Assembly: GCA_038889075.1 (NCBI GenBank)
Contig: JAWAHS010000012.1
Location: 1 to 45,148 of the forward strand
Length of the DNA: 45,148 nt
Reading direction: 5' to 3'
From: Ignisphaera sp.
Lineage (GTDB): Archaea; Thermoproteota; Thermoprotei_A; Sulfolobales; Ignisphaeraceae
Both the position numbers and the translations under genes were made by a program. Positions 44-44,892 of the stretch are shown one piece after another. The notes beneath the pieces are model-generated. The model saw nothing but the letters and a program-made list of their open reading frames with translations. It had not been told where the DNA came from and did not search any database. The number at the start of each line of letters is the position of its first letter. Positions within the stretch are counted from its first letter, which is position 1.

Positions 44-328
44 AACCTCACAACTCCGTACGGAGGTGAAAAATATGACATTGCTCCACTCGAGGAGCTG
101 GTGAGGATATACCAGATCTACAAGCTAGAAAACCAGGTTAACTACAAGCTGAGTAAACGAGACCTCAAGCGAATAGTCAAGATGCTAGCCGAAGAAGTAG
201 TTAACTTTCTAGTAAAGCAGGGATGCGGGGGGTGGGATTTGAACCCACGCAGGCCTATGCCATCGGGTCCTGAGCCCGACCCCTTTGACCTAGCTCGGGC
301 ACCCCCGCATTATCTATATAGTAGGTAG
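44..328 (+). pseudogene. Probable SSV-type integrase N-terminal fragment (intN) reading antisense into tRNA-Leu
   Basis: The open frame (…KYDIAPLEELVRIYQIYKLE…KQGCGGWDLNPRRP) runs antisense through the tRNA 3' half, which is the geometry of partitioned SSV-type integrases. IAPLEELVRIY resembles the recalled intN motif (VGPLxxVVxxY). In-frame stops at 35-43 truncate the N-terminus. Confidence 0.45.
224..308 (-). tRNA. tRNA-Leu (anticodon CAG), no intron, CCA not encoded
   Basis: Reverse complement GCGGGGGTGCCCGAGCTAGGTCAAAGGGGTCGGG-CTCAGGA-CCCGA…GGTTCAAATCC…CCCCCGCA folds as a cloverleaf with a long variable arm. Confidence 0.97.
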
Positions 329-383
329 CTATCTAGCAAGGTTTTTATATCTAAGCTATCCGCTTCTCATATGCTAGAATCTG

Positions 384-650
384 CTATCTCTCTAGCGGAT
401 TCCACGATGCTACTAAGGCTACTCTATCACTATCTAGATCTCTCCATATTATGTCGCCGAGATCTGGATCTATTGTAAGGATTTCGTGTATGTTTTGCTT
501 AATGTCTACAATCTCTATTTTGGCTGACAGTCTACTGGATAGCTTCTCTAGCTTCTCTATAGCCTCCTCCCTACTGTAGATTCCCAGTACTGTTTTCATA
601 GATTCGCGTACTACCGTTCCCAGTGGGCTTTTTCTATACTGGTACCACAT
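384..650 (-). CDS. Hypothetical protein, possibly a 5'-truncated gene
   Basis: 88-aa ORF with genome-typical codon usage. Its ATG lies immediately after the 3' end of the structured element at 652-846. Confidence 0.45.
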   Translation of the reverse strand: MWYQYRKSPLGTVVRESMKTVLGIYSREEAIEKLEKLSSRLSAKIEIVDIKQNIHEILTIDPDLGDIIWRDLDSDRVALVASWNPLER

Positions 651-651
651 A

Positions 652-846
652 GGGGTTCAGCTCTGATATGGGTTTGTATTGGTTGGCTTCATCGCCTCAT
701 CTCTTTTCCTCTGCATCGGTCTTGGGTCTGCATCGCCCTTGGAGGTGTTTAGGGCGACCCCGGGCACCCCACATCTTGAGCATCTTGGGGAGAGCCTTCA
801 TCTAGAGCATCACAGCGGCTCTCGAACCCCTCATCGAGACCATTTC
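652..846 (-). ncRNA. Structured K-turn-rich ncRNA / tnpB 3'-end (omegaRNA-like) remnant, copy A
   Basis: TATA-like TTATAAATA at 876-868; stem GAGAGCC/GGCTCTC; several GATGA/GATG motifs. Core CAAGATGTGGGG…AGACCGATG…GCTGAACCCC is collinear with 21838-21963. Confidence 0.6.
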
Positions 847-1004
847 CACGTACCACTACGCATAGAGTATTTATAAGCGTTTCTATCAATATCAACCGAT
901 GCGAACAGATATGAAAACCGAAACAGTTGCACAAGGCTACACTCTCTTCATTGATGTGCTTCACACCTTAACTATATTCTAGATACGATACCAGATCTAG
1001 GTAG

Positions 1005-1352
1005 TTGATAATGCTGTTAGAGGCTATAATATTTATCGGACTTGATGAGGTTAGCAATAGTGCTCTGGAGAATCTTAGGGAGGCGTCTGAAATGCTTGTA
1101 AGAGAGTATGGAATTAAGCTCGTTATAGTACCCGTTAACATGTGGTCCGATCCGATTAGCTCATCGCTTAGATCTCTACCAACGATAGTTATAAATGGAT
1201 TTAAAGCATTCTCAGGGTATGCACCTACAGCTAGTGAGATACGGGACTACGTGCTGAAGATCGCTAAGGCAAAGAATAGAGTAGGGGAATTCCGGCTACC
1301 GGCAGGTGTAGTGGATAGTGGTATGGTGAATGCCTCAGCAATTATAGCGTAG
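1005..1352 (+). CDS. Thioredoxin-fold-like protein lacking cysteines
   Basis: SLPTIVING…FSGYAP resembles the cis-Pro strand region of thioredoxin/glutaredoxin folds; no CxxC present. Confidence 0.6.
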   Translation: MIMLLEAIIFIGLDEVSNSALENLREASEMLVREYGIKLVIVPVNMWSDPISSSLRSLPTIVINGFKAFSGYAPTASEIRDYVLKIAKAKNRVGEFRLPAGVVDSGMVNASAIIA

Positions 1353-19349: not shown

Positions 19350-19535
19350 GCTTTGGATGGTGATGGGAGCAGTGATCCAAGCTACCTAGGGCTACCTGTA
19401 GATGGGAGCTGTATTCTATTCGGCTTGACAGCCGCCCACGGATCCACAGGGATTACACAAATTCAATCAATGAACAGATATGAAAAACGAAACAATTGCG
19501 CAAGGCGGAAGTCCCTAGATATGAATAAACATTAA
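19350..19535 (+). ncRNA. Structured ncRNA / tnpB 3'-end remnant of a second lineage, copy D
   Basis: TATA-like TTTATATT at 19333; stems TTGGA/TCCAA with internal TGATG…GTGA, CCTGTAGAT/ATCCACAGG and CTAGGG/CCCTAG. Translation (…VDGS…GLTAAH…ARRKSLD) resembles recalled crenarchaeal TnpB C-termini. Confidence 0.45.
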
Positions 19536-21538: not shown

Positions 21539-21837
21539 ATAACACCCTTGCAACACATAACAAACGCTACAAATGATTATAGACACTGCCACTATATCTG
21601 TAGAGGGAGAGGATCGTAAGTGAAAGTAATACTCCTGTCGTACCACGAAGCACATACGGAAATGTGACCATAAAATCAGCATACTAATAAAAAATCAATT
21701 ATATAAAGAATACCTGGCAAAACGATTTAAACAGATATTTAATGAACCACTCTCCATGCTAGCCTCTATAGAATTCAAATCTATATAGCATACTAACAGT
21801 TTGATTTAATTGCATGTATGGACTTATTCATAAGGTG

Positions 21838-21963
21838 TTCAAGATGTGGGGTTTTGGGACACCCTTGAACATCCCTAGGCCCGATGAGAACCGGAGACTG
21901 ATGTGGGTAACGAAGATGGGCAAGGATACTAATCTATATAAACCAATACAAGGGCTAAACCCC
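21838..21963 (+). mobile_element. tnpB 3'-end (omegaRNA-like) remnant, copy B
   Basis: TCAAGATGTGGGG…CCGATGAG…AGACTGATG…AAACCAATAC…GCTAAACCCC, collinear with the reverse complement of 652-780. Confidence 0.6.
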
Positions 21964-22224
21964 ATCTATAGATATAACATATATTATCAGCTTCGAGAAA
22001 GGTGTAAAGAGGTAAAGATTTAAATATACTCAGATGTAGAAACCTTAAATGGGTAGGGTATATGTCTAAGAAATGTGGTAGGAGAGCAAAAGATAAAGAG
22101 AAGGAAAGGAAGGAGGGTCAATAGCTCGAACTAAAGGTCGCATCCCTATGCTAAACCATATATACACACCTTCACTTGAATTAATTTTTAATCTGTACAT
22201 TAATTAATAATTAATAATGCTGAT

Positions 22225-27971: not shown

Positions 27972-28041
27972 GGATGTGCATCACCTAGAAGTTAGCTGGC
28001 TTCTTAAAAAACATTGATTTGATTAAGGCATTTCGGATTTT

Positions 28042-28122
28042 CTACCACTCTTCTTCTTCCCATTCCTCTTCTTCTTCCCACCACTCTTCTTCCTCTTCTT
28101 CCCACTCCTCCTCTAGGAGCAT
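28042..28122 (-). CDS. 26-aa Glu/Trp micro-protein MLLEEEWEEEEEEWWEEEEEWEEEEW
   Basis: TATA-like TTTAATAA (~28168-28161), SD GAGGTG, ATG 28122, TAG 28044-28042; mixed GAA/GAG codons, frame intact. Confidence 0.75.
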   Translation of the reverse strand: MLLEEEWEEEEEEWWEEEEEWEEEEW

Positions 28123-28206
28123 CGTTAGCACCTCACATCTTAAAGCTTCACAGCACGGGGTTATTAAACATATCTTCTGTTACAACATATAGAATCAATA
28201 GATTTG

Positions 28207-42263: not shown

Positions 42264-42326
42264 AAATTGGAGATGCATTGAACAAATTCTCAATACAGCA
42301 ATTATTAGCCTCACACAACTGTTTCA

Positions 42327-42615
42327 GGTTTCATATAGGTTTATAAGGGTTGATGGTGGTTGTTTTACTGTTTGAGCCCATCCACGATGTGGGTGTATGG
42401 TAAAGACCCAAGTGGATGAGTACTCAAAGCCAGGATGTGGGGGTTTCCCCACAGCTGTGAACCGGAACCATATGAGGGGGAGCTGTGGGTAGGGGTTTCC
42501 CCGAAGGGGTGGAGACCGATGACATGGGCACCGATGAAAGGTGCCCCAAGGTCGATGAAACCAAGGGTCGAGATCAAACAGCATCAACCAACATGAAACC
42601 CAAACCCCGTCAACC
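42327..42615 (+). ncRNA. Large multi-K-turn structured ncRNA / MITE-like element, copy C
   Basis: Nested inverted repeats GGTTTCAT/ATGAAACC, GGTTGATG/CATCAACC, CTGTTTGA/TCAAACAG; inner stems CATCCAC/GTGGATG and CCCACAGCT/AGCTGTGGG; GATGAA-loop hairpins. Shares GATGTGGGG, AGACCGATG and AAACCCC with copies A/B. Confidence 0.6.
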
Positions 42616-44804: not shown

Positions 44805-44892
44805 GCGGGGGTGCCCGAGCCAGGTCAAAGGGGTCGGGCTGAGGACCCGATGGCATAGGCCTGCGTGGGTTCAAATCCCACCCCCCGCACCA
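44805..44892 (+). tRNA. tRNA-Leu (anticodon GAG), CCA encoded
   Basis: GCGGGGGTGCCCGAGCCAGGTCAAAGGGGTCGGG-CTGAGGA-CCCGA…GGTTCAAATCC…CCCCCGCA-CCA; TATA-like TTATAAAA at ~44751. Confidence 0.97.

Follow-up and report, generated by a model that had tools for sequence, protein, structure and literature searches.

A GATG-rich stretch resembling a structured RNA lies near the start of a 45,148-nt DNA from Ignisphaera sp. (the window, meaning this whole stretch), where its core forms one of the few GC-rich islands in a sequence with a GC content of 42%. The earlier note placed at 652..876 a stand-alone omegaRNA-like element with its own promoter and an added 5' K-turn module (copy A), and put it forward, together with four further copies (B to E), as the best candidate for an undescribed system. 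The locus thus raises the questions of where such an RNA comes from, how far it extends, whether it still works, and whether it represents anything new. The answer to the first question is nearly certain: copy A is a non-autonomous element that arose by internal deletion from a tnpB-only insertion sequence of ~1.5 kb (IS200/IS605 superfamily, IS1341-like) found in Desulfurococcales-like archaea. An obscure GATG-rich structured RNA thereby becomes an annotated miniature TnpB element with ends, a candidate promoter, a scaffold and a putative guide position.

Origin and extent of copy A

The collinearity of the core with copy B was confirmed, with 779..652 on the minus strand aligning to 21839..21965 on the plus strand; over 176 columns the mean column identity is 78%, and all of the motifs are in common. 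In six related loci an uninterrupted TnpB ORF of 412-455 aa spans the whole core and has its TGA stop codon inside GCTGAACCCC. In these full-length relatives, found in Desulfurococcales-like archaeal assemblies, the stop is located 5 nt before the core end, and the core therefore corresponds to the omegaRNA scaffold and to the transposon right end. The Pfam family PF07282 (Cas12f1-like_TNB) was matched by all three of the ORFs tested, with E values from 2e-15 to 2e-17, and the best PDB relatives of these ORFs are TnpB/Cas12f chains. Upstream of the core, the in-frame translation C..CGF.GDRDV.A..N is present in at least 22 of the 61 copies listed. In the window itself, tblastn with the TnpB of a related locus aligned positions 794..660 of copy A to aa 368-412 (69% identity, E 6e-14). 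The homology to tnpB 3' ends on which the earlier note had staked its proposal is thus present at the level of ORFs, Pfam and tblastn. The GATG motifs of the core, previously taken for RNA features, are former tnpB codons (GAT GAA, GAT GAG, ATG ...).

As had been stated, no tnpB or tnpA gene is present in the window: none of its 52 ORFs of at least 110 aa has a TnpB or TnpA match in Pfam, and tblastn with TnpB detected C-terminal remnants only, at copies A and B.

The region in front of the core comes from the opposite end of the same gene. The order of parts in the alignment of full-length and short elements is a left end (LE) of about 48 nt, a segment of about 165 nt present only in the full-length form, the box AGAAA(G/C)(C/G)CTTATAAA, and then TCGATGAGGGAGGAAGAGC...GGCTCTCCCCGAGGG. 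The module of copy A aligns to TCGATGAGGGAGGAAGAGC...GGCTCTCCCCGAGGG, which in the full-length loci L014, L057 and L053 encodes MREEELVEALRMRALPEG of TnpB, the start of the TnpB reading frame; the ATG inside its GATGA motif is the parental tnpB start codon (834..832). The putative promoter of copy A, with the TATA-like CTTATAAAT at 877..869, aligns with AGAAAGCCTTATAAAC upstream of the tnpB start in the full-length elements, and the predicted TATA box is conserved across the short copies. The LE of the full-length elements is found 1372-1376 nt upstream of the core (five loci). The internal deletion therefore joins the first ~20 codons of tnpB (~60 nt) to its last ~45 codons (~135 nt), and what had been described as an added 5' K-turn module is a retained tnpB promoter, start codon and first ~20 codons.

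Copy A as a whole is a minus-strand element of 286 nt (937..652), extending from the left end GCCT... to the right end ...AACCCC, with a core of 125 nt (776..652). The element originally delimited as 652..876 is therefore real but was drawn too short, since it continues to a conserved left end; positions 8-50 of the full-length element L014:626-2125 align to window positions 930..888 at 79% identity (blastn). The nhmmer profile used to delimit it (Table 1) was built from 29 short copies, copy A among them. A TATA box and a hairpin module with GATGA-type motifs do precede the core, on the minus strand within 880..650; the arms of the hairpin lie at 823..817 and 796..790, with GATGA-type motifs on both sides. 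The description as a stand-alone element with a conserved, predicted TATA promoter thus holds.

The frame that opens at the old ATG reaches a stop codon after 10 codons in copy A, so the element is non-coding. A mini-protein made from the old start codon was considered and rejected, the frame being closed after 10 codons in copy A and after 18 in the commonest type; it is in frame with the C-terminal remnant in a few copies only.

Table 1. Parts of copy A and related sequences in the window
Feature	Positions	Strand	Basis
Whole short gene-less element (copy A)	652..937	-	nhmmer, profile positions 1-282, E 2.8e-84
Left end (LE), 48 nt, common to full-length tnpB elements	890..937	-	blastn
BRE-like AGAAAC and TATA box CTTATAAAT, putative parental tnpB promoter	869..884	-	alignment to full-length elements
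5' module: hairpin derived from the tnpB start codon and the first ~20 codons	784..840	-	alignment
Core: omegaRNA scaffold, former tnpB 3' end, right end	652..776	-	tblastn, covariance model
Putative guide position, flank just 3' of the scaffold	632..651	-	expected from TnpB literature
Copy B, decayed 3' remnant of a tnpB-bearing element, without LE or promoter module	21803..21963	+	tblastn, nhmmer
Copy E, divergent longer gene-less relative with the same LE	42308..42608	+	nhmmer, profile positions 1-282, E 2.9e-9
Solo left end	19466..19506	-	nhmmer, profile positions 1-43, E 1e-4; blastn, 78% over 37 nt; repeat D14

The right end of copy A (652) is located 1 nt before the ATG (650..648) of an 88-aa ORF, 384..650 on the minus strand, which has no Pfam match. 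The promoter of copy A would read straight into this ORF, and the putative guide position overlaps the start of the ORF and would coincide with its first codons. No T-rich terminator was recognised after copy A by reading of the sequence, and a scan of 300..1300 for terminator-like sites of bacterial type, which is not designed for archaea, returned none.

Spread of the short form

A scan of genome contigs with a pattern of three conserved motifs returned at least 117 loci, about half of the loci listed being chance matches in bacteria. After the removal of duplicates and of L063, a chance match in Desulfovibrionaceae, at least 61 non-redundant copies with the family signature were retained; they are near-identical and measure 121-131 nt from motif to motif. 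Among the matches listed, the hosts are Desulfurococcaceae, Ignisphaera, Thermosphaera and assemblies labelled 'Sulfolobales/Thermoproteota archaeon', with one further assembly labelled Nezhaarchaeota; the genome from which the window derives is absent among them. A dispersed family, as proposed, is thus represented by at least 61 copies in related archaea, and its short members would need TnpB in trans.

At least 34 of the copies are short, have unrelated flanks and occur in 9 assemblies of several genera, while at least 22 are linked to tnpB. The short class comprises 29 copies recognised by the pattern of the hairpin module and five with a variant module (L033, L048, L089, L097 and L065). 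A further five copies among the 61 are ambiguous or cut off at the edge of the locus (L030, L062, L067, L088 and L116). One assembly contains at least 17 short copies against at least four tnpB-linked ones. The short form has therefore moved as a single unit to many sites, and it is commoner than its parent in at least one genome.

The boundaries of the unit were defined by an end-to-end alignment of 28 short copies from the loci and copy A, each taken with 260 nt of its upstream flank. Among these 29 copies conservation sets in sharply at GCCT, some 160 nt in front of the core, and breaks off just as sharply after AACCCC; the flanks on both sides are unrelated between copies. In 40 copies of the LE the G of GCCT carries 2 bits of information, against at most 0.7 bit in the positions before it; at this boundary GCCT alone is invariant, position -1 being an A in 27 of the 40, and a TAM could not be defined from these left flanks. 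Since the short form occupies many unrelated sites with common boundaries, it was propagated after the deletion.

Near-terminal palindromes were not found in the LE and right end (RE) of copy A and of one full-length element, and the DNA folds of these four ends were no better than those of shuffled sequences (z of +1.28, +0.56, -0.23 and +0.06); the usual TnpA (Y1) route of IS200/IS605 elements is therefore not evident. Terminal inverted repeats were not found either, the LE and the reverse-complemented RE agreeing at 9 of 30 bases, nor was a target duplication, the substring shared by the two flanks averaging 3.18 nt in 28 copies against 3.17 nt in permutations.

Two core sub-types, CCC..CGG and GGT..ACC, are each found both among short and among tnpB-linked copies, which suggests either a repeated origin of the short form or exchange between copies. 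In one assembly, two short elements (L069 and L070) are located 1.7 kb apart on the same contig and in the same orientation.

RNA structure and possible function

The structure of the core was predicted by RNAalifold from an alignment of 63 sequences. The 18 pairs obtained are all located in the 5' half of the core, and no pairs were predicted in its 3' half. Canonical pairs are found in 97.3% of the cells (63 sequences, 18 pairs), as counted on the same alignment from which the structure came, against 89.2% in column shuffles, none of 500 of which reached the observed value, and at most 59% when the partners were slid by 1-3 columns. Six pairs change on both sides among the 63 sequences; these compensatory changes represent few independent events, because the copies fall into few sub-lineages. 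Pairing is kept in short copies (597 of 612 cells) and in tnpB-linked copies (387 of 395). Covariation of the stems, which had been put forward as a check, is seen in these compensatory changes.

Copy A has canonical bases at all 18 pairs, including a private compensatory change from C-G to U-A, and copy B at 13 of 17. In the covariance model of the core copy A scores 149.4 bits without a non-canonical pair and copy B 91 bits, scores that follow by construction because both copies are in the seed alignment. Compensatory pairs are absent in the two-sequence consensus fold, and folds of single sequences were uninformative (z of -1.46 for copy A and -2.84 for copy E). With the 63-sequence alignment, this model provides a description of a crenarchaeal omegaRNA family that is missing from Rfam.

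The entropy of codon positions is alike in short and tnpB-linked copies and did not discriminate coding from non-coding constraint; much of the variation is therefore a legacy of the coding parents and gives no sign of RNA-level selection in the short copies. The same resemblance would be expected of an element of identical origin that is functionally dead, a recent deletion relic that has not yet decayed and whose only possible effect is that of a portable promoter reading into the 88-aa ORF. The absence of tnpB from the window, the position of the right end next to the ATG of that ORF, and the decay of copy B in the same window (13 of 17 pairs and a lower GC content) are consistent with such a relic. 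Speaking against a dead relic are the at least 34 short copies that share sharp boundaries between unrelated flanks in 9 assemblies of several genera, and the 18 of 18 pairs of copy A with their compensatory change. Further evidence against it comes from the 5' module: the hairpin stem is more perfect in the short copies than in the coding parent, and the length of its loop varies; the retained tnpB start region is now a perfected hairpin. Inactivity of copy A is on balance somewhat unlikely.

A second alternative takes the GATGA-type motifs as K-turns and the element as a domesticated L7Ae ribonucleoprotein with a host function independent of TnpB. The K-turn consensus comprises a three-base bulge and tandem sheared G.A pairs, located between a canonical and a non-canonical helix. 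The module can indeed be drawn to fit it, as C-helix / GAU / GA / GGG ... CCC / GA / G, and the GA after the bulge is present in all 31 analysable copies. This invariant GA, however, is made up of the last base of the start codon, a G, and the base that opens codon 2; the GATGA motif contains the start codon of the parental tnpB, CCC GAG likewise goes back to codons of the parent, and the motif therefore needs no explanation at the RNA level. The C-helix has only 2 bp in 23 of 27 short copies, a finding that also speaks against the K-turn module of the earlier note. The 2n position is occupied by G in 24 of the 31 copies, by A in four, copy A included, and by T in three; among the 27 short copies these numbers are 22, 2 and 3. 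On the opposite strand GA is found in 24 of the 31, AA in four (again with copy A) and TA in three, and three further copies lie outside the pattern. On our reading, the stems of the core that are supported by covariation cannot be drawn as a K-turn, and the C/D-box models of Rfam match with 17 bits, far short of the gathering score of 40. There is a precedent in the L7Ae-binding RNAs sRkB and sRkC of Pyrococcus abyssi, which are related to the 3' end of OrfB, as described in the relevant part of PMC3124441. Given this precedent the RNA may bind L7Ae, but the view that the module was added for that purpose is rejected, and a domesticated L7Ae particle is very unlikely.

In the full-length elements L014 (~860-960), L053, L057 and L028 the start codon lies within a putative K-turn-like fold that consists of a helix of 3-6 bp, GAU or AGU, GA, GGG ... 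CCC, GA or AA, and GGG. Such a fold at the start of the gene could allow control of tnpB translation by L7Ae.

An ordinary archaeal guide sRNA, of the C/D-box or H/ACA type, or another known structured RNA would also give a GATG-rich, GC-rich island in an AT-rich genome, and weak alignments to C/D-box models of Rfam are present. The best of these are far below the gathering scores (snoR60 with 17.0 bits against 40, and sR53 with 12.1 bits against 49), the best sub-threshold matches have E values of about 1 or higher, and at gathering thresholds the whole window yields nothing but two tRNA-Leu. Permissive Rfam scans around copies A, B and E gave noise only (C/D-box models, a CRISPR repeat with E 9.2 and a coronavirus UTR). 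The sequence is moreover explained base by base as parts of a tnpB element, which leaves such a guide RNA a negligible probability. Readings as H/ACA RNA, RNase P RNA, SRP RNA or C/D RNA that had been drawn from motifs were dropped given the tnpB homology.

The most likely mechanism, favoured with some confidence, is that copy A is a non-autonomous element that is transcribed from the retained promoter into an omegaRNA requiring TnpB in trans. RNA polymerase would start about 25 nt downstream of the TATA box, near 845-850, cross the leader and the scaffold and read on into the flanking DNA, so that the first ~16-20 nt after 652 would serve as the guide. A TnpB from another site in the genome would take up this omegaRNA and, as shown for bacterial IS605 elements, would then cut the empty site left by excision, after which recombination would restore the mini-element. 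The chances that copy A itself still works as a trans omegaRNA are about even.

If the short copies are active, they would offer a natural system for the trans loading of guide RNAs at high temperature and a compact thermostable scaffold whose minimal 5' boundary has already been mapped by nature. Otherwise they are ordinary mobile-element debris, to be masked in ncRNA screens of these genomes. In a more far-reaching proposal, which we regard as rather doubtful, the short elements would be self-propagating, guide-RNA-only parasites of TnpB in hyperthermophilic Crenarchaeota that persist through borrowed TnpB homing, and the retained start region would be a functional RNA in both forms: in full-length elements a K-turn-like fold through which L7Ae gates tnpB translation, and in short elements a hairpin that stabilises or marks the omegaRNA precursor.

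Relation to known systems and further copies in the window

The claim of an undescribed system does not stand. Gene-less elements known as PATEs (PMC3119063; 10.1101/2023.03.14.532601) and the ncRNAs of P. abyssi (PMC3124441) have already been published, and the kind of element represented by copy A, whether viewed as a gene-less omegaRNA-bearing element or as a promoter-bearing OrfB-related archaeal ncRNA, is therefore already known. The PATEs of Haloquadratum walsbyi are described in the pertinent part of PMC3119063 as gene-less IS605/IS1341-type derivatives that arose by core deletion and outnumber their parents. For Geobacillus stearothermophilus, passages of the preprint of Meers et al. 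(10.1101/2023.03.14.532601) state that PATEs often encode omegaRNAs requiring TnpB in trans, and that TnpB cuts the empty site and recombination restores the element. Like PATEs, copy A is too short for a protein (286 nt) and shares its ends with tnpB-bearing elements; its family arose by core deletion, and the short form is more numerous than the parents in one assembly among the matches listed. The lack of terminal inverted repeats and of a target duplication is likewise common to this family, PATEs and IS200/IS605 elements. Unlike PATEs, it has ends without near-terminal palindromes, the feature from which PATEs are named; it has retained the tnpB promoter along with the first ~20 codons, which now form a hairpin, and it resides in crenarchaeal assemblies of hyperthermophile type.

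The closest analogue in layout is the group of P. abyssi RNAs sRkB/sRkC and sRk48/sRk52. In the sections of PMC3124441 devoted to them, these ncRNAs are described as arising from repeated intergenic loci that resemble the 3' end of a solo OrfB (tnpB) gene, with a BRE/TATA promoter of their own that precedes the mapped 5' end by about 24 nt and primary transcripts of about 211-218 nt. sRkB and sRkC bind L7Ae at two K-turns, as established by EMSA, footprinting and GA mutants. The sRkB RNA runs into the start of the downstream ORF PAB0571, in the same way as copy A adjoins the ATG of ORF 384..650. The P. abyssi RNAs are, according to this part of the source, experimentally expressed and bound by L7Ae, whereas the present family is known from sequence alone and its K-turn case is weak. 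They are also euryarchaeal and the present family is crenarchaeal, the likeness described here being one of layout.

The omegaRNA/reRNA of TnpB (PMC8612924) and the archaeal sotRNAs of IS1341-type genes (PMC4615843) share with copy A an RNA that covers the tnpB 3' end and extends to the right end, conserved stems and, for copy A putatively, a guide in the flank. Copy A, as expected of an omegaRNA, derives from the tnpB 3' end and ends at the right end; a conserved scaffold structure was observed for the 5' half of its core; and the flank after AACCCC, where the guide would lie, is unrelated between copies. Unlike in these omegaRNAs and sotRNAs, the RNA gene here is set apart from tnpB and has a relocated tnpB promoter. 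In Halobacterium, a truncated tnpB pseudogene of 120 bp harbours a probable sotRNA, which PMC4615843 mentions as a possible reason for the persistence of such remnants. A literature search returned no paper on this family in Desulfurococcales. The novelty is modest and consists of the retained tnpB start region, reshaped into a hairpin, and of ends without palindromes.

Within the window, the covariance model of the core detected no further core copies, and the family of five copies was therefore an overstatement: only copy A is intact, and it is accompanied by the decayed copy B, the divergent copy E and a solo left end. A motif search with three mismatches allowed, which gave 19 matches in the window against 10.4 expected, was uninformative by itself. 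In copy B, aa 361-379 of TnpB correspond to 21803-21859 (tblastn), and the nhmmer profile is matched from position 150 to position 282 only (21833-21963, E 4.3e-20). Its GC content is lower than that of copy A and its broken pairs are marked in the covariance-model alignment; such remnants also simply decay.

Copy E scores 22 bits (E 0.002) in the covariance model. The element is GC-rich; its LE is 90% identical to that of the full-length element but its core is divergent, and homologues of copy E were found in the flanks of loci L080 (78% over 302 nt) and L015 (87% over 126 nt). It is flanked by the gene of a RecB-family nuclease (DUF2122) and a radical SAM gene, and lies just downstream of a C-5 cytosine methylase gene. 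The solo left end sits between a small ORF and the anaerobic ribonucleotide reductase gene, and the sequence downstream of it has a faint likeness to the module only.

A site just upstream of the small ORF at 28039-28143, with two mismatches to the 5' motif of the core, was discarded as a chance likeness (2 bits in the covariance model). At 28039-28143 on the minus strand, just upstream of an ABCE1/RLI-like gene, a small ORF reading MLLEEEWEEEEEEWWEEEEEWEEEEW runs over 18-nt tandem repeats. The two tRNA-Leu genes, 221-309 on the minus strand and 44805-44892 on the plus strand, have the anticodons CAG and GAG, respectively; they are 98% complementary over 86 nt and stand as an inverted pair, one at either end of the window.
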